DNA of 64,000 bases from a virus, in the IMG/VR virus record IMGVR_UViG_3300003322_000327, positions 38,121-102,120 of that record, one strand, 5' to 3'. The position numbers and the translations under genes were made by a program. Positions 22,789 to 29,630 of this stretch are shown piece after piece. Positions within the stretch are counted from its first letter, which is position 1; every line of letters begins with the position of its first letter. The notes beneath the pieces are model-generated. The model was not told the origin of the DNA and ran no database searches. It was given only the letters and a program-made list of their open reading frames with translations.

Positions 22789-24114
22789 ATGAGAGAACTA
22801 CCAGCCCCAGGCTACTACTGGGCACCAGCTGCAATGGAGCAACTCTACAACCAGTCGCTGGTGAAGAAACCCTTCGACGGTCCCTACGAGCCCCACATGT
22901 ACCGCAAGGAGTTCGAGGGCAAGGCCGCAGGCGTCCGCATCATGGAAGGCTTCGGATCGAAGATGGCGCACTCGGCGCGCATCAAGCTCAAGGATGCCTG
23001 GCATCCCGGTCGCGAACTCCTGAAGCGCACGCACTTTGGCCTCTACAACGCCCAGGACAAGGTGATGAAGCCTTCGCACCTGGAGCAGGCCGAGGCGCTG
23101 GGCAAGCTGTGCTATCGCATTCAAGACTCGGGTGGCTTCCAGCTCTTCTCTGGCGTCCAGGACTTCATCGACCCAGTCGAGCTGGCGAAGATCCACAACG
23201 TCTTCGCAGACTCCGGAGTTGGCCTCGACTTGCCGATGAGTCTGGTCGAGGACAAGCAACTCGTGATCGCTGGCGCACGCATGATGGCTGCGAACTCCGT
23301 GGTGCTGCAGCGTGAACGCACGACCAAGTGGGCGCTGATGAACGTGAGCCACGGGCTGACCCCTCAACTCCGCGCCACGTGGCAGAAGGTGGCCCTGGCC
23401 GATCCTCTCGACAGCCTGTGCATCGCCGGCCTTCGCGGATCGATCCTCGACACCGCAGTCGGTGCCAACCCGGTTGCGATCGCAGCGCACCTGCTGGTCG
23501 GCATGCTGTACCCTGCCAAGTACAAGCACTACCACCTGTTGGGACTCAGCTCCGTCATCGGCATGAGTCTCGCGGCCCTGATTGCCAACCTGCACCAGAA
23601 GGTCGTGACCTCCGACTCGACAACGTACCTGAACGGGCAGCAGTTCAAGAACTTCATCAACGGCACGATCCCACCGAAGGAAGGCAACTACGGACGGATC
23701 AAGTGCAGCTGTCCAATCTGCAACTTCATCGAGTTCGAGTACTGGATGGATGGCTTCCCGACGCTGATGCTGCTCCACAACGCCGAGCAGATCAACAAGG
23801 GTTGCGAGACGCTGAACGGCCTCGCCAAGGTCGTGATTGCTAAGAAGCTCAAGGGCTTCGAGGCTGCCCGCTTCTTCTTCAAGGCCGGGGTCGGAATCGA
23901 CAAGCGTATGATCCAGCCACTGGGTCGTGCCTTCGACATGATCCTGAACACGAAGAAGTACAGCGAGGCATGCGCCATCGACTACTCGGTGAAGAAGGTG
24001 CAGATGGGATCACTCTTCGGCACCAAGCCCGTCACCAAGGCAGACAACTCGAGGTTCGAGGGCATCATCAAGCGGTACGAGAAGTACCACAAGCAGAAGT
24101 TCCTCAAACCGTAA
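22789..24114 (+). CDS. dpdA: TGT-fold guanine transglycosylase (DpdA-like, predicted 7-deazaguanine insertion into DNA)
   Basis: DSGGFQ signature, LDLP, HLLG, SDSTT, CSCPIC...HN zinc site; adjacent to queC/queE/folE/queD. Confidence 0.8.
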   Translation: MRELPAPGYYWAPAAMEQLYNQSLVKKPFDGPYEPHMYRKEFEGKAAGVRIMEGFGSKMAHSARIKLKDAWHPGRELLKRTHFGLYNAQDKVMKPSHLEQAEALGKLCYRIQDSGGFQLFSGVQDFIDPVELAKIHNVFADSGVGLDLPMSLVEDKQLVIAGARMMAANSVVLQRERTTKWALMNVSHGLTPQLRATWQKVALADPLDSLCIAGLRGSILDTAVGANPVAIAAHLLVGMLYPAKYKHYHLLGLSSVIGMSLAALIANLHQKVVTSDSTTYLNGQQFKNFINGTIPPKEGNYGRIKCSCPICNFIEFEYWMDGFPTLMLLHNAEQINKGCETLNGLAKVVIAKKLKGFEAARFFFKAGVGIDKRMIQPLGRAFDMILNTKKYSEACAIDYSVKKVQMGSLFGTKPVTKADNSRFEGIIKRYEKYHKQKFLKP

Positions 24115-24145
24115 ATAGAAGCATCGCACCTAAGAAGGACCAATC

Positions 24146-25090
24146 ATGAATCCCAACGTCGTACCGTTCTACAGCCATCGCAGCCGCAGGTTCGAAGACC
24201 TGTTCGTCGAGACCCAAGAGCGTCTGCTTGACCTCGCCGGTCTCGATTCCAAGAAGGACATGGCGCTACTCGTCACCGGCTCGGGCACCCTGGCCAACGA
24301 GATCGTCATGAGCTCGATGTCGCGCCGTCCCCACATCGCGACCCACGGAGAGTTCAGCACGCGGCTGCAAGAGACCGCCGACTGCTACTGGGGTGGCGAG
24401 TCGGCGGATCGTGACTACAAGTTCGGCGTCCAGTTCGAGACCGCCGAGGCGACTCTGAACTACACCGACTCGTACTTCGCAGTCGACTGCGTGTCGGCCT
24501 TTCCGTTCTATCCGCTGCCGGAGAAGGCACGGATCATGACCACGGTCAGCTCGAAGCAGCTGGGCGCCGATACGGGCCTCAGCATCATCTTCATTCGCGA
24601 CTACCGCGAACTGCTGACCCAGGGCATCATCGACGGCTCCAAGCGCTCGTACCTGAGCCTGAATCGCTACATCCAGTACGCGCTCAAGAACCAGACGCCG
24701 AACACACCGGGCATCGGACTGATCGAGAGCTTGAACGAGCGCCTGAAGGTCTTCGACCCCGAAGCCGAGCGCGAGCGCATCACCGGCTACTGGCAGCGCA
24801 TCACCGATGCCATCAAGGCCAAGAAGCTGTTTGCGACCTTCACCGGCGTCAAGCCGACTCCGGTCATCACCTTCAAGGGCATCGGCGAGCAGCTCTCCGA
24901 CCTCGGCCTGTACTCGAACTCGGGCAACCCGCAGCTCTTCCTCTGGTCGGCGACCGACGATCAAGTCGATCTCGTGGTCCAGCGCATCATGGACTACGAG
25001 ATGCCAGAAGTCAAGTCGGTGCTGGGCACCGTGGGCACCGCTGTTCCCTTCGCAGCAGGGGTCGGCCTCTCCATCGGAGAATCGAAGTGA
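24146..25090 (+). CDS. PLP-dependent class V aminotransferase-like enzyme (PhnW/serine-pyruvate transaminase fold)
   Basis: VTGSGTLANE, HGEFS, VDCVSAF, SSKQLG (PLP lysine), TPNTP. Confidence 0.8.
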   Translation: MNPNVVPFYSHRSRRFEDLFVETQERLLDLAGLDSKKDMALLVTGSGTLANEIVMSSMSRRPHIATHGEFSTRLQETADCYWGGESADRDYKFGVQFETAEATLNYTDSYFAVDCVSAFPFYPLPEKARIMTTVSSKQLGADTGLSIIFIRDYRELLTQGIIDGSKRSYLSLNRYIQYALKNQTPNTPGIGLIESLNERLKVFDPEAERERITGYWQRITDAIKAKKLFATFTGVKPTPVITFKGIGEQLSDLGLYSNSGNPQLFLWSATDDQVDLVVQRIMDYEMPEVKSVLGTVGTAVPFAAGVGLSIGESK

Positions 25091-25752
25091 GCATCCTCGC
25101 ACATCTCAGCGGCGGCTTCGACTCCGCTGCCTCGACCCTCAAGGTCGCGAACACGGGCGTCACGTTCAGGACCCTGCTCATCAATCTGGGTCAGCCATAT
25201 CTGCTGCAAGAGCGCAAGGCGGCTGAAACCTTCGCCGGCTGGCTGTCGGAGAAGTATCCGAACTACCTCGGTCATCATGAACTGAAGGTCGACATGGCGC
25301 TCTCACAACAGGGCCAGGTCAGCGCCTATATTCCGGTGCGCAACCTCGTGATCGGTGCCATGAGCGCCAACTTCGCACTCGCCACCGGATGCGACACCAT
25401 CGCGGTCGGCAACAAGACGCTCGAACTCAGGCCCGAGGACCCGTACTGCTTCAACGACTGCAGCCTCGAGTTCTACACGGAGCTGGGCAAGCTCGCGACT
25501 TTCGCGTCGCAAGGGCAGAGCGTCCAGTTCATCATGCCACTGCTCGATCTCGTTCACGACAAGTGGGTCGAGGGTGTCGAGATCAAGAAGCGAGTGCCGA
25601 TGTCGAAGCGCGAGGTCGTGCTCTATGTCCAGGAGCAAGGGTACGACGTGCGCCGGCTGTGGAGCTGCTACGAATCGTCGATCCGTCCGTGCGGCAAGTG
25701 CCATCACTGCGCCGAACTCATCAACGCTGGCGTCTGGGACCTCGTATCATGA
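25087..25752 (+). CDS. queC: 7-cyano-7-deazaguanine synthase
   Basis: SGGFDS PP-loop, IPVRN, NDCSLEF, SCY...CGKCHHC. Confidence 0.9.
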   Translation: MSILAHLSGGFDSAASTLKVANTGVTFRTLLINLGQPYLLQERKAAETFAGWLSEKYPNYLGHHELKVDMALSQQGQVSAYIPVRNLVIGAMSANFALATGCDTIAVGNKTLELRPEDPYCFNDCSLEFYTELGKLATFASQGQSVQFIMPLLDLVHDKWVEGVEIKKRVPMSKREVVLYVQEQGYDVRRLWSCYESSIRPCGKCHHCAELINAGVWDLVS

Positions 25753-26606
25753 CCATCATCCCCATCAAGCCGGATCGTGTGATCCAGAACGTCGATCGCG
25801 TCGTCACTGCGCGCGAGTTCGAAGGTCAGGACGACCTGTTCGTCACCGGCCATCCATTCCTCACGATCCAAGGTGAAGGCCCCCGTGCGGGTCAGGTCGC
25901 CTGGTTCGTTCGTCTCGCGGGCTGCAACTTCGGCGACAAGACCACATCGGACAAGAGCCCCGGCATGTGCGCCTTCTGCGACACGAGCTTCCAACTCGAC
26001 CAGGCCAACCAGATCAGTCCCGAGCGACTGCTCGACAACATCATCAAGGACCCGAGGTGGAAGCCGAACCATCTCCTGGTCGTCACTGGTGGTGAGCCGA
26101 CGCTGCAAGCACGAGCCCTGGCTCGCTTCCTAACCCTGGCGGCTGTGCCTTTCGACGACGTGCAGATCGAGACCAACGGCTCGCAGGCCGCGTTCTTCAA
26201 GCTCATCGATCATCCCGACACCAGGGACATGGTCGACAAGCTGATCGTGGTCGTGAGTCCGAAGGCAACGGAGATCACGGGCAAGTACACCCAGACTTCC
26301 AGGTCTGTGCTCTACGGCCCGCAGTCACTGACGGCACTCAAGTTCCTGCTCAGCGCCGACGATCCGTGCTACAAGGAAGTGCCGCTCTGGGGTCGTGAGC
26401 ACATGTCGAACGACAACGGTCCGGTCTACGTGTCTCCGATCGCGGTCTACAAGAAGCCGTACCAGGGCGAGATCAGCAGCGCCTGGGATCACGAACTGAT
26501 CGACGCCGAGGCCACGAGTCGCAACTACAGCTACGCAGCTGCCTACGCAATCGAGCACGGTCTCAACCTCTCGATCCAGCAGCATCTCTTCTGCACCATC
26601 CCATGA
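25749..26606 (+). CDS. queE: 7-carboxy-7-deazaguanine synthase (radical SAM)
   Basis: FLTIQGEG, FVRLAGC, CX14CX2C cluster motif, TGGEP, IETNG, VSPK; ATG at 25749. Confidence 0.9.
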   Translation: MTIIPIKPDRVIQNVDRVVTAREFEGQDDLFVTGHPFLTIQGEGPRAGQVAWFVRLAGCNFGDKTTSDKSPGMCAFCDTSFQLDQANQISPERLLDNIIKDPRWKPNHLLVVTGGEPTLQARALARFLTLAAVPFDDVQIETNGSQAAFFKLIDHPDTRDMVDKLIVVVSPKATEITGKYTQTSRSVLYGPQSLTALKFLLSADDPCYKEVPLWGREHMSNDNGPVYVSPIAVYKKPYQGEISSAWDHELIDAEATSRNYSYAAAYAIEHGLNLSIQQHLFCTIP

Positions 26607-26615
26607 AGGATCACG

Positions 26616-27290
26616 ATGAGCAAGACTGACCACCAACTCGGACTGCAGGTTCGAGATCACCTGATCGCTGCGGGCGTCGAAACTCCGATGATCCCGCTGA
26701 GTCACGCGCGTCCGCTCTACACTCCAGTCGGGCAGAAGGAGAAGATCGCGGAACACTTCGCGGCGATCATGCAGATTCTCGGCCTCGACCTCAACGACGA
26801 CAGCCTGGTCGAAACTCCGAAGCGTGTCGCCAAGATGTACGTGGACGAAATCTTCTACGGCCTCGACTACTCGAAGTTCCCGAAGTGCACGACGGTCGAG
26901 AACAAGATGCGCTACAGCGACATGGTCATGGAACGCAACGTCAGCGTCCAGTCCAACTGTGAGCATCACTTCGTCGTCATCGCCGGCAAGGCCCAGGTCG
27001 CCTACATCCCGAAGGACAAGGTACTCGGTCTCTCGAAGATCAACCGTGTCGTCGAGTTCTTCTCGAAACGGCCGCAGATCCAGGAGCGTCTGAGCGCGCA
27101 GATCTACCACGCGCTGCAGTACATCCTCGGCACCGACGACGTAGCAGTCGTCATCGAGGCCGAGCACTACTGCGTCAAGAGTCGCGGCGTCCGTGACGAA
27201 GGCTCATCGACCGTGAGCTCTCACATGGGTGGCAAGTTCATGGACCCGGCACTCAGGGCCGAGTTCATGTCATTCGTCGAACGAGCCTGA
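26616..27290 (+). CDS. folE: GTP cyclohydrolase I
   Basis: ETPKRVAKMY, NCEHH, GLSKINR, RPQIQERL, HYCVKSRGV. Confidence 0.95.
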   Translation: MSKTDHQLGLQVRDHLIAAGVETPMIPLSHARPLYTPVGQKEKIAEHFAAIMQILGLDLNDDSLVETPKRVAKMYVDEIFYGLDYSKFPKCTTVENKMRYSDMVMERNVSVQSNCEHHFVVIAGKAQVAYIPKDKVLGLSKINRVVEFFSKRPQIQERLSAQIYHALQYILGTDDVAVVIEAEHYCVKSRGVRDEGSSTVSSHMGGKFMDPALRAEFMSFVERA

Positions 27291-27324
27291 TCCAACAACC
27301 TCACCACACCACATAGGAAGCAAC

Positions 27325-28203
27325 ATGAGCACCGAACAAGTCAACGAACAGAGCCAGAACGAGCCCGTCGAAGCCGACCAAGGACTGGCGCCGCCGAAGT
27401 CGTACCCGCTTCTCAGCGCAGCCGAGCTGCAGCGCGTGCTGAGCCGCACCAGCGAGCACAGCTTCGCCTTCAACATCCAGCGCATGAACCAGATGTACAA
27501 GCTGCCGATCCTGACGGCGCCGACTCTGGAAGGTCTGACCAAGCCGAACGGCACGTCCGAGTCGGCCTCGAACCGCATCAAGGGCTTCCTCCGCACCCTG
27601 CACGACGAGGTGCTGGAAGGCAACGAGATCCTGGTCAAGCTGTGCCTCATCGAGTCGAGCCGTCTCGACACCGTGCCGGTGACGCTGGTCGAATGGGTGA
27701 AGACCATCGAAGAACGCCTCGGCATCATCCTCAGCTCCGAGTCGGCCACGAAGTGCCTCGAGTTCGCCGATCTGGTGCAGCGCGACTACGACGAAGCCGT
27801 CAAGGACGTGTTGGTCGACATCGCCGACTGGACGGGCGACATCATGGTCTACTGCCGGTCCGAGGCCATGAAGTTCGGCCTGCCCTCCGAGAACGTGCTC
27901 GAAGCCATCATGGGCTCCAACTTCACGAAGCTGCCCTCCGACGGCATCCCGGTCCACGACGCGAACGGCAAGTTCCTGAAAGACATGACCAACTTCGTGC
28001 CGCCCGAGCCGGCGATCAAGACCATGCTGTTCGGCCTCAAGCCCGAACCCACGGTCGACGCCGACGGCAACGTCAAGGCCACGGTCAGCCCGGCCACCCA
28101 GTCCTGGTTCGGCATCCCCGACTCGGACCCGACGGTCAAGATGAGCAACAACGTGTACTCTCCGGCCGAAGCCGGAACCAAGGACACGGGCTTCGTCGAC
28201 TGA
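27325..28203 (+). CDS. MazG-like all-alpha NTP pyrophosphohydrolase (PRA-PH/DR2231-like)
   Basis: DEVLE...DIADWTGDIMVY...IMGSNFTKL...NGKFLK...PP; ATG at 27325 with AGGAAG SD. Confidence 0.7.
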   Translation: MSTEQVNEQSQNEPVEADQGLAPPKSYPLLSAAELQRVLSRTSEHSFAFNIQRMNQMYKLPILTAPTLEGLTKPNGTSESASNRIKGFLRTLHDEVLEGNEILVKLCLIESSRLDTVPVTLVEWVKTIEERLGIILSSESATKCLEFADLVQRDYDEAVKDVLVDIADWTGDIMVYCRSEAMKFGLPSENVLEAIMGSNFTKLPSDGIPVHDANGKFLKDMTNFVPPEPAIKTMLFGLKPEPTVDADGNVKATVSPATQSWFGIPDSDPTVKMSNNVYSPAEAGTKDTGFVD

Positions 28204-28213
28204 GGACTGACCA

Positions 28214-28537
28214 ATGACTGCAGACCTGAAGCCCTTGGGTTGGGGCATCATCGCCAACAACGCGAAGGACAAGAAGTTGAGGTCCGGGGCCAAGGTCTGG
28301 ATCATCGGTGTCAACGGAGGTGGAGAACGCTGCCAAGTCAGAGGCCTGAATGTCCAAGGCCGCATGATCGAGAAGTACGTGGCGTTCTCCAATCTCAGCA
28401 ACTATCGACCAAGCGCGATCATGCCGACCCACACGAAGCACGAGGTGTGGCCGTTCGGTGGTCCGGATGATCGCGCTGTGGTGCAGGGCTACTGCGATTC
28501 GCTGAACAAGCGGACAGACAGTAAAGAAGAGTCGTAA
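28214..28537 (+). CDS. hypothetical protein (SH3/KOW-like beta pattern)
   Basis: 107-aa ORF, GAGGA SD. Confidence 0.65.
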   Translation: MTADLKPLGWGIIANNAKDKKLRSGAKVWIIGVNGGGERCQVRGLNVQGRMIEKYVAFSNLSNYRPSAIMPTHTKHEVWPFGGPDDRAVVQGYCDSLNKRTDSKEES

Positions 28538-28548
28538 AGGAGCAGAGC

Positions 28549-29181
28549 ATGGAATTCAAGTACAAGTCAACGAAGACCTTTCACCAGGCCTTTCCGGTCG
28601 CGTACAGGCAGTGGCGTGCGGACTCGCATTGCAACGTCGTGCATGGCTACGCGCTGTCGATCCACCTCGAGTTCGGCGCCTTCGACCTCGACGCTCGTAA
28701 CTGGGTCGTCGACTTCGGATCGCTGAAGCCCCTCAAGGCGCAGCTCGAAGACTGGTTCGATCACACGATGCTGGTCGCCGAAGACGATCCGCATCGGGAA
28801 GCGCTGCTCGCTCTCCACAAGCTGGGTGTCGCCAAGGTCACCGAAGTCGAGCGCACGGGCTGCGAAGGTCTGGCCGACTTCGTCTTCGAGCACCTCAACG
28901 ATCGTGACGCCGGCTGGCTCAAACTCTACGGCTACGGCGGTCGCGTCATCTGCACCAAGGTCGAAGTCCGTGAGACGGATGCCAACATGGCGATGCGGAC
29001 CCTGACCGTCAGCGACTGGGTCCGGTTCACGATGCCGACCGAGCAGAAGCACGTCCACCAAGGTGCTGTCGCGGCAGGCAGCACCAAACCAGTCGGCACC
29101 ATCGAAGACTTCGAGGTCGTCTGTGACAAGAACGGACTGACGGCCGATGAACGACTGGCTCAACAAGCGGAGCGAGCATGA
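28549..29181 (+). CDS. queD: 6-carboxytetrahydropterin synthase
   Basis: YRQWRADSHCNVVHGY, WVVDFG, FDHTML, CEGLA, VEVRET. Confidence 0.85.
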   Translation: MEFKYKSTKTFHQAFPVAYRQWRADSHCNVVHGYALSIHLEFGAFDLDARNWVVDFGSLKPLKAQLEDWFDHTMLVAEDDPHREALLALHKLGVAKVTEVERTGCEGLADFVFEHLNDRDAGWLKLYGYGGRVICTKVEVRETDANMAMRTLTVSDWVRFTMPTEQKHVHQGAVAAGSTKPVGTIEDFEVVCDKNGLTADERLAQQAERA

Positions 29182-29630
29182 GACCAGTACATATCCACAC
29201 CCACGTCGAGGCACCACGGACTCCGAGCCGTATCGACGTCCACGAGCATCGGGCTCCGACCGTCGAGTCGGCGAAGTTTCTGTCCGAGCTCGAAGCCGAG
29301 GCCATGAAGAAGATCGAGGCATCGATCAAGCTCGACCACTCTCTGTTCGACTGCCGTGTATTCGTCATGCGAGAGTCCGGCATCAACAACGACATCAAGT
29401 TCGTGATGTTCTATCGGCTGGGTCCGAATCCGACGCCCGGTCGTGAACTGGACTACGCGAAGATGACTCGTGTTGAACACGAGGTACAGCTCTGGAGCAA
29501 TCCGCCACTCGACCAGATCGTGGCCGGCATCATCAAGGCTCTGTCCGAGTCGATCGCCAGAACCATGCTGAGCTCGTGCGGCGAGAGCCTGCTGCGCTCG
29601 ATGCGTGAGATGGGCATGGGCTGGTCATGA
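29178..29630 (+). CDS. hypothetical phage protein
   Basis: 150-aa ORF, ATGA overlaps. Confidence 0.65.
   Translation: MRPVHIHTHVEAPRTPSRIDVHEHRAPTVESAKFLSELEAEAMKKIEASIKLDHSLFDCRVFVMRESGINNDIKFVMFYRLGPNPTPGRELDYAKMTRVEHEVQLWSNPPLDQIVAGIIKALSESIARTMLSSCGESLLRSMREMGMGWS

Follow-up and report, generated by a model that had tools for sequence, protein, structure and literature searches.

Phage DNA has been reported to contain eight 7-deazaguanine derivatives (PMC10516641), and with each new one the understanding of how phages resist restriction and other nucleic-acid defences has changed. In phages such as CAjan, whose DNA carries the deoxynucleoside of 7-cyano-7-deazaguanine (preQ0), or dPreQ0, the precursor enzymes FolE, QueD, QueE and QueC are encoded together with the transglycosylase DpdA in one cluster that adjoins replication genes (PMC6884629, PMC10516641), and the published tailoring enzymes of such bases include QueF, ArcS and glutamine amidotransferases (GATases). 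Here, we describe a cluster of this kind at positions 22789-29181 of a 64,000-nucleotide stretch (hereafter the window) of the IMG/VR virus record IMGVR_UViG_3300003322_000327, which belongs to an uncultured giant phage; the record is 109,605 bp long and its CheckV completeness of 46% implies a phage of ~200 kb or more. This cluster also adjoins replication genes and contains the same precursor genes and a transglycosylase with the fold of tRNA-guanine transglycosylases (TGT), but it differs from the CAjan-type systems in that a gene for a pyridoxal phosphate (PLP)-dependent aminotransferase (hereafter AT) is coupled to queC. We found that AT-QueC is a conserved and mobile module in several unrelated phage lineages, and the operon that carries it may well make a DNA base that is not yet described.

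A PLP transaminase in a 7-deazaguanine cluster

The block is made of eight co-oriented genes on the + strand, with short gaps or overlaps between them, in the order that a first-pass annotation of the window had given: a DpdA-like gene, AT, queC, queE, folE, a MazG-like gene, a gene without assigned function and queD. The overlap which that annotation had noticed between the PLP gene and queC is seen at the AT stop and the QueC start (GTGA), while the QueC stop and the QueE start overlap as ATGA; a ribosome-binding site, AAGAAGGA, lies upstream of AT. Its proposal of a 7-deazaguanine DNA-modification cluster was likewise borne out, by gene homology and by the TGT fold and motifs of the DpdA-like protein, and the block is accordingly to be read, from its genes, as a cluster predicted to replace guanine in phage DNA. 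From GTP, FolE, QueD and QueE would together be able to make 7-carboxy-7-deazaguanine (CDG). Searches of the 109,605-bp record, 46% complete by CheckV, with PF14489 for QueF and DUF5591 for ArcS found neither, in agreement with what had been said of the window, and no class II GATase was found in that record either, so that none of these three published tailoring enzymes was recovered from it. The PLP enzyme does appear to stand outside the described pathways: full-text literature searches returned no paper that describes a PLP enzyme as part of 7-deazaguanine DNA modification, and no aminotransferase is mentioned in PMC6884629, in PMC10516641 or in the 2026 survey of the QueC family, PMC13329287.

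The first gene of the block (22789..24114, + strand) encodes a 441-aa protein, P0002, identified from its motifs, its family profile and its AlphaFold2 (AF2) model as a DpdA-like DNA guanine transglycosylase with a TGT fold. Unlike its counterparts in CAjan-type systems, it is too diverged for the Pfam TGT model: P0002 had no Pfam or PHROG match, and PF01702 was absent from the record at E<=1. Within its family (21 homologues), D113-S-G-G-F-Q and D276-S are invariant and C306, C308, C311 and H330 are near-invariant; these DSGGFQ, D-S and CxCxxC..H zinc-site motifs align with those of the archaeosine TGT (ArcTGT), and the family profile matched archaeosine TGT 1iq8 in the PDB at 5.7e-5. When the AF2 model (pLDDT 87.7) was compared with the PDB using Foldseek, the top 50 matches were all TGT, ArcTGT or DpdA structures (50/50, 7ui4 included), the best one being 7nq4 (1.2e-8, TMq 0.52) with a large rmsd that indicates strong divergence. 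On the strength of this model, P0002 is a strongly diverged member of the TGT/DpdA superfamily, which we leave without assignment to one of the DpdA1-4 subfamilies, and its fold and motifs make it the predicted base-exchange enzyme acting on DNA. It is 24-28% identical to the 'TGT' proteins of the jumbo phages Motura, BCSR5 and GR7B, and its homologues sit in 200-230-kb phages of Pseudomonas, Xanthomonas, Burkholderia and Achromobacter. Motura, a cultured phage, offers a possible model for laboratory work on this type of DpdA.

The second gene (24146..25090, + strand) encodes AT itself (P0001, 314 aa), a compact class V (subgroup IV) transaminase as judged from its PLP residues and its fold. 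P0001 had no Pfam or PHROG match at E<=0.01, PF00266 included, a family that more distant relatives of normal length do match, and it scored far below every NCBIfam equivalog cut-off (39 bits vs 360.8 for TIGR03301, 18.2 vs 600 for NF046070 and 14.9 vs 253 for NF003764). Its sequence matches were PDB 3f0h (1.8e-6), SerC 3ffr (1.2e-5) and the PhnW family TIGR03301 (6e-10). Foldseek comparisons of its AF2 model (pLDDT 92.6) retrieved the phosphoserine aminotransferase 3ffr (3.7e-17), 3f0h, 2dr1 (TMq 0.74), 2-aminoethylphosphonate (AEP) transaminases and AGXT, with PhnW and SerC as the best Swiss-Prot matches. In an alignment with 23 relatives, G45-S46-G47, D114, T187 and the Schiff-base lysine K137, which aligns with the PLP lysine of 3f0h, are invariant; when 80 relatives are compared, there is no variation at D114, K137, T187, H11 or R12, and G45-S46-G47 is nearly invariant. 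With its PLP lysine (K137) and pyridine-binding aspartate (D114) unchanged in every relative compared and its GSGT loop fully or almost fully conserved, the enzyme is very likely active. P0001 is thus a PLP enzyme of the PhnW/serine-pyruvate type (class V, subgroup IV) with an intact active site, the type to which the first-pass annotation had assigned it.

Compared with SerC, PhnW and AGXT, AT has a similar structure (TM ~0.70-0.74) and keeps the PLP lysine, the aspartate, the GSGT loop and the N-terminal His-Arg (HR) dyad, but its family is ~80 residues shorter, shares 14-21% identity with them and lacks the Pfam match. That family comprises 315 clusters (50% identity) at E<=1e-3 and 156 at E<=1e-10; almost all members are 265-310 aa long, again ~80 residues below ordinary class V enzymes, and most of those seen come from viral or phage-like contigs. 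These data define a family of ~280-aa transaminases, mostly on such contigs, that work beside ATP-dependent ligases (see below). In P0001, the core of ~280 aa is followed by a C-terminal tail modelled with low confidence: residues 291-314 (25035-25087) are Gly/Ala/Val-rich (pLDDT 53-61) and unique to the copy in the window, the tail of a 71%-identical homologue being different. Two ideas about the enzyme were abandoned. A cysteine desulfurase acting in thiolation, as the combination of a class V fold with a PP-loop enzyme could have suggested, was rejected, the family having no conserved cysteine and its fold neighbours being transaminases; the HR dyad was dropped as a sign of phosphate binding, as it is also present in the subgroup IV enzymes 2dr1 and 1iug, which have non-phosphorylated substrates.

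The AT-QueC pair across phage lineages

The neighbourhoods of AT were sampled from 15 viral and 80 metagenomic loci plus exact-protein look-ups (loci are designated L below), the neighbours being labelled by profiles of the window's own genes, and counts were made over 87 non-identical AT loci. QueC was found directly downstream of AT in 15 of these, mostly with a 4-nt overlap, and three more had AT among que genes, so that the co-occurrence of the PLP family with dpdA and queC, which the first-pass annotation had put forward as a check, proved positive. The AT-QueC loci come from phages with T4-like, jumbo and other backbones and include three DpdA types. A 71%-identical AT lies in a fully syntenic cluster on other contigs, and ATs that are 31-39% identical to P0001 lie in quite different arrangements: on a T4-like contig, the order is FolE, a 433-aa DpdA-like protein, AT and QueC, and in a different phage it is FolE, AT, QueC, a DpdA-ParB fusion, QueD and QueE. 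The pairing was also seen from the side of QueC. The closest QueC clusters (n=36) are 35-77% identical to that of the window, and in each of the four close relatives that were examined on long contigs (4/4), a Pfam-less protein of ~280 aa overlaps the QueC start and a Pfam-less DpdA-like gene lies upstream; three of the four overlapping proteins were confirmed as AT by BLASTP, with 36-40% identity to P0001. In a complete 118-kb phage genome with the module, the AT-linked QueC is the sole QueC. T4-like, giant and other phages from many environments carry AT-QueC, and no published pathway accounts for this module. The cluster itself gave no match in a nucleotide search against 50,697 phage records, and when AT was compared with these records by tblastn, a single weak and partial match was obtained, with no cultured phage found to carry this AT.

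Phages do carry metabolic genes, AT resembles phosphoserine aminotransferase and its family also occurs outside que clusters, all of which would suit an auxiliary metabolic gene that is unrelated to the base, boosting for example serine or another amino acid, and that adjoins QueC by chance or through shared regulation. We regard this as very unlikely, for AT and QueC keep their 4-nt overlap in lineages whose ATs are no more than 30-40% identical and whose other neighbours are all different, the closest QueC relatives examined carry AT in four cases out of four, and, away from QueC, AT adjoins another ATP-dependent ligase.

Other genes were noticed in these clusters. On two T4-like contigs (L100:5747-6175 and L102:5779-6180), an NT5C-type phosphatase of the haloacid dehalogenase (HAD) superfamily, 133-142 aa long, is encoded between the DpdA-like gene and AT, and an NT5C-type HAD gene also lies just upstream of AT in L015. 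An Rv2179c-like exonuclease is encoded inside the que cluster of T4-like contigs, with a phosphoribosyltransferase too in L001. The DpdA-ParB fusion at L002:11526-13094 is a 522-aa protein in which a DpdA-like domain (with DSGVF and D-S motifs) is joined to a ParB_N domain; the two parts are adjacent separate genes in L004 and L010. In bacterial Dpd systems, DpdA and the ParB-like DpdB are separate proteins.

Partners of AT and a candidate amide-linked base

Away from QueC, AT was found beside another type of ligase: in 47 of the 87 loci, it adjoins a gene for an ATP-grasp (RimK-like) carboxylate-amine ligase, located upstream of AT in 42 of the 47 (five of which have one on each side) and only downstream in the other five. 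Compared with the PDB, these ATP-grasp partners gave marginal Ddl/RimK-type matches or none. Their loci, mostly on low-GC marine contigs, have sugar-decoration clusters with genes for UDP-glucose dehydrogenase, an NAD epimerase/dehydratase, glycosyltransferases, a methyltransferase and a PIG-L deacetylase. In the main marine class, AT is followed by a small HAD-like gene, and in six loci HAD precedes AT. In a maximum-likelihood tree of AT, a single well-supported clade (59 rows) holds the marine ATP-grasp class and the QueC-linked ATs form deeper branches, the AT of the window belonging to a supported clade of six QueC-linked rows. Since a small ATP-grasp group is nested among the QueC-linked branches, the partner of AT, QueC or ATP-grasp, has changed no fewer than two or three times. 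The link of AT to ATP-dependent ligases and HAD phosphatases is family-wide.

The same family occurs in several further settings. On many low-GC marine contigs, several of them viral (L023:3873-13365, L026:6875-9279 and L012:5379-13104 are examples), ATP-grasp, AT and HAD-like genes stand with genes for UDP-glucose dehydrogenase, epimerase/dehydratase, a GT2 glycosyltransferase, a methyltransferase and PIG-L; these contigs look like they encode an undescribed phage-borne pathway of uronic-acid amide decoration, the putative target being a glycan or DNA. Two members are fusion proteins: P0078 (L110:1022-2446) joins AT to an S-adenosylmethionine (SAM) methyltransferase and is encoded directly behind an ATP-grasp gene, and P0145 (L111:6001-7368) joins AT to a HAD phosphatase within a bacterial Wzm/Wzt polysaccharide cluster. 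Contexts other than the QueC or ATP-grasp pairings were seen at L027:1283-2957 and L056:6723-10276; in one, AT is followed by a nucleoside triphosphate (NTP) transferase, reminiscent of PntC-AEPT fusions, and in another it lies between a gene for a CDP-glycerol glycerophosphotransferase-like protein and one for an FtsX-like permease.

These partners bear on the role of AT, for which the first-pass annotation had considered either a tailoring of the 7-substituent, by transamination between formyl and aminomethyl forms or by decarboxylation, or the supply of a substrate. Decarboxylation is less supported, as the fold neighbours of AT are transaminases rather than decarboxylases. If AT instead interconverted 7-formyl and 7-aminomethyl (preQ1) substituents, the DNA could contain the preQ1 deoxynucleoside (dPreQ1) without any QueF, or a 7-formyl base; the subgroup does include enzymes that turn an aldehyde into a primary amine (AEP transaminase is among the top folds and NF046070, pyridoxamine-pyruvate transaminase, is a weak match), and the methyltransferase fusion recalls the methylated dPreQ1 of PMC10516641. 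However, neither the cluster nor five AT-QueC records (a complete genome among them) contain a real QueF or an obvious carboxylate or nitrile reductase for the supply of the aldehyde or of preQ1; weak QueF (PF14489) matches in four of these records correspond to the FolE-related T-fold, the checked ones falling on FolE open reading frames (in L004, by coordinates). The methyltransferase fusion, moreover, stands behind an ATP-grasp gene outside que clusters, and such a reaction leaves unexplained both the strict coupling to QueC and the pairing with ATP-grasp and HAD genes elsewhere, which makes it distinctly unlikely in our view. The supply of a substrate fits better with a family that pairs with ATP-dependent carboxylate-amine ligases and HAD phosphatases, the substrate being an amine for a QueC acting as an amide ligase.

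Canonical QueC is a preQ0 synthase that consumes ammonia and two ATP in converting CDG. The QueC of the cluster is itself unusual. P0164 (221 aa; 25087..25752, + strand; PF06508, 72.9 bits) is a QueC-family PP-loop ATPase of a non-canonical, AT-linked clade and scored 48.6 bits with TIGR00364, whose equivalog cut-off is 150.3. We compared it with the canonical QueC signature in the refined version of PMC13329287, in which QueC has a YxQxHxxE motif, the Y35A mutant is inactive and the Y131F mutant is partially active. P0164 contains the PP-loop (LSGGFDS) and a zinc site, C194-x7-C202-x2-C205-x2-C208, with a first spacing of C(x)7C vs the canonical C(x)8C. At the YxQxHxxE position, it reads LGQPYLLQE, with a Q(x)5E spacing, and departs from the canonical motif: His39 is replaced by Tyr in all AT-linked QueCs compared (Y38 is invariant in the A4 alignment), and the position of Tyr35 is occupied by Leu in P0164 and varies across the AT-linked clade. 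The VPxRN motif is kept as IPVRN and YPDC reads FNDC (F or W in the clade), preceded by a clade-specific insert of five residues (KTxxxR) before (F/W)xDC, in which K110 is invariant and R115 near-invariant. The QueC of CAjan keeps the canonical motifs and reads YGQRH-NIE, with the YxQxH spacing and the His that P0164 both lacks. When the profile of the clade was compared with the PDB, the best match was Cap9 (9nto_B, 56.8 bits), followed by the QueC of B. subtilis at 54.3 bits. The AT-linked QueC thus departs from the canonical signature and shares two motif spacings, Q(x)5E and C(x)7C, with Cap9.

Cap9, from type IV cyclic oligonucleotide-based antiphage signaling systems (CBASS), and QatC are QueC-family ligases that put CDG on the N-terminal amine of proteins (10.1101/2025.04.06.647259; PMC13329287). 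In Cap9, this protein amine attacks the AMP-activated CDG and the ancestral catalytic core is kept (bioRxiv 10.1101/2025.04.06.647259; PMC13329287). The QueC of the window shares with Cap9 the QueC fold, the ancestral core and the two spacings, Cap9 being the best PDB match of the clade profile; in the chemistry proposed here, it would also resemble Cap9 in combining CDG-AMP with an amine other than ammonia. The two differ in that Cap9 acts in bacterial defence on a protein amine, is shorter (~185 aa) and is encoded beside a CD-NTase, whereas P0164 is encoded in a phage DNA-modification operon and its proposed substrate is a small-molecule amine from AT.

ATP-grasp enzymes and QueC alike use ATP to activate a carboxylate and transfer it to a nitrogen nucleophile. 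Because the AT family pairs with ATP-dependent carboxylate-amine ligases and HAD phosphatases, we favour a role of AT as an amine supplier: AT would make a small amine, QueC would join this amine to CDG and DpdA would insert the resulting N-substituted 7-amido-7-deazaguanine, a pathway in which we place appreciable confidence that stays somewhat short of even. More precisely, AT may produce a small primary amine that could be a phosphorylated one, akin to serinol phosphate or phosphoserine; QueC would adenylate the carboxylate of CDG, as in its normal first step, and then couple CDG to the AT-made amine in place of ammonia, giving an N-substituted 7-carboxamido-7-deazaguanine. Such a secondary amide could not be dehydrated to the nitrile preQ0. 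DpdA would then insert the base, unless the ligation takes place on the CDG deoxynucleoside (dCDG) already present in DNA, and the resulting hypermodified base would shield the DNA from host nucleases. That AT-QueC phages carry, as an undescribed base, a 7-carboxamido-7-deazaguanine with a small group, such as an amino-alcohol or amino-acid residue, on its amide nitrogen is a prediction that we make a little more tentatively still. This specific prediction of an amide-linked base results from the family-wide link of AT to ligases and phosphatases together with the way in which its partner QueC departs from the canonical motifs towards Cap9.

The trio that recurs around the AT family (transaminase, ATP-dependent carboxylate-amine ligase, HAD phosphatase) is also known from a described pathway. 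In the HS:2 glucuronamide pathway of Campylobacter jejuni, dihydroxyacetone phosphate is converted to serinol phosphate by the transaminase Cj1437, the ATP-dependent ligase Cj1438C joins serinol phosphate to glucuronate as an amide and the HAD phosphatase Cj1435 then takes off the phosphate (PMC11800397). The likeness is an analogy by description, the sequences of Cj1437 and Cj1438 not having been compared, and there are clear differences: in the window, the carboxylate would be that of CDG and not of glucuronate, the ligase would be a PP-loop QueC and not an ATP-grasp enzyme, and there is no phosphatase.

Several points weigh against the amine-coupling pathway. No HAD phosphatase was found in the cluster or in the 109.6-kb record (46% complete), and the association of AT with HAD could also be compatible with PhnW/PhnX-like or SerC/SerB-like metabolism. 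The pathway requires a DpdA that takes a bulky N-substituted base. The likeness of QueC to Cap9 consists of two motif spacings and a small score difference, the margin over the QueC of B. subtilis being 56.8 vs 54.3 bits, and the retention of VPxRN, FxDC and the zinc site, together with the presence of Tyr at the Tyr35 position in some members of the clade, would still allow ordinary preQ0 synthesis.

The glutaminase domain of Gat-QueC proteins presumably supplies nitrogen to the QueC reaction. The nearest phage matches of P0164 are the QueC domains of such proteins and the order AT-then-QueC mirrors their domain order, which suggests that AT might likewise feed nitrogen to an ordinary QueC reaction, the DNA base then being a known one: dPreQ0, dADG (the 7-amido-7-deazaguanine deoxynucleoside) or dG+ (deoxyarchaeosine). 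The PP-loop, VPxRN, FxDC and the zinc site that QueC keeps agree with this, and so does the related jumbo phage Motura, in which an AsnB-like amidotransferase separates QueC from the homologue of DpdA. Gat-QueC of the 9g-like Queuovirinae, whose DNA contains dG+, Motura and the window thus all have a nitrogen-handling module directly beside QueC in a phage que cluster, but the modules of the first two are glutamine amidotransferases delivering ammonia, whereas that of the window is a PLP transaminase of an unrelated fold. The close fold relatives of AT are all transaminases, which move an amino group to a carbonyl and release no ammonia, the canonical His39 is replaced throughout the clade of the AT-linked QueC, and a supply of ammonia leaves the ATP-grasp and HAD partners of the family unexplained; we therefore hold nitrogen donation to be unlikely. 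As small a chance as for the formyl-aminomethyl exchange is left to something outside these four readings.

The Motura cluster is of interest in its own right. At L018:5743-11512 (Achromobacter phage Motura, MN094788.1 17431-23200), the genes encode QueC, the AsnB-like protein, TGT (the P0002 homologue), a protein of unknown function, QueE, another such protein and FolE. The Cap9-like Q(x)5E spacing is present in the QueC of Motura too, and no report of Motura's DNA base was found in the literature.

If QueC of the AT-QueC module does act as an amide ligase, this would link a chemistry of bacterial defence, that of Cap9 and QatC on proteins, to phage counter-defence. The module would then be a small-molecule, DNA-directed counterpart of protein deazaguanylation by Cap9 and QatC, and it would provide a new programmable handle on DNA.

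Remaining genes of the operon

Downstream of queC, all genes are again on the + strand. QueE (25749..26606, 285 aa), a radical-SAM 7-carboxy-7-deazaguanine synthase, was identified with phrog_2076 (1.4e-28) and TIGR04508 (1.8e-17); its start is at 25749, the longest open reading frame, from 25389, not being the gene. FolE (GTP cyclohydrolase I; 26616..27290) matched PF01227 at 4.6e-61. A consensus scan of the block gave no excess of promoter-like or terminator-like sites over shuffled sequence.

The following gene encodes a MazG-like nucleotide pyrophosphohydrolase (phrog_671, 1.8e-11) with an unassigned N-terminal half and probably extends over 27325..28203: a start at 27325 is most likely, since a GGAAG ribosome-binding site precedes it and the resulting length agrees with that of the syntenic contig's homologue. 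The match to phrog_671 is confined to a C-terminal stretch, residues 189-262 of the long open reading frame, and the N-terminal part of ~150 aa had no match. The syntenic contig retains the gene, but the other AT-QueC lineages lack it.

A 107-aa protein without assigned function (28214..28537) had no match in Pfam, PHROG or NCBIfam searches, its counterpart in the syntenic contig being a 122-aa gene at the same position. QueD, a 6-carboxytetrahydropterin synthase with a C-terminal extension, is encoded at 28549..29181 (PF01242, 1.9e-15; phrog_2389, 2.9e-38). It is followed, with a 4-nt overlap, by a gene for a 150-aa protein (29178..29630) that matched phrog_37058 (function unknown) at 7e-8 and is a possible member of the pathway; in the syntenic contig, a 149-aa gene is found at its place.

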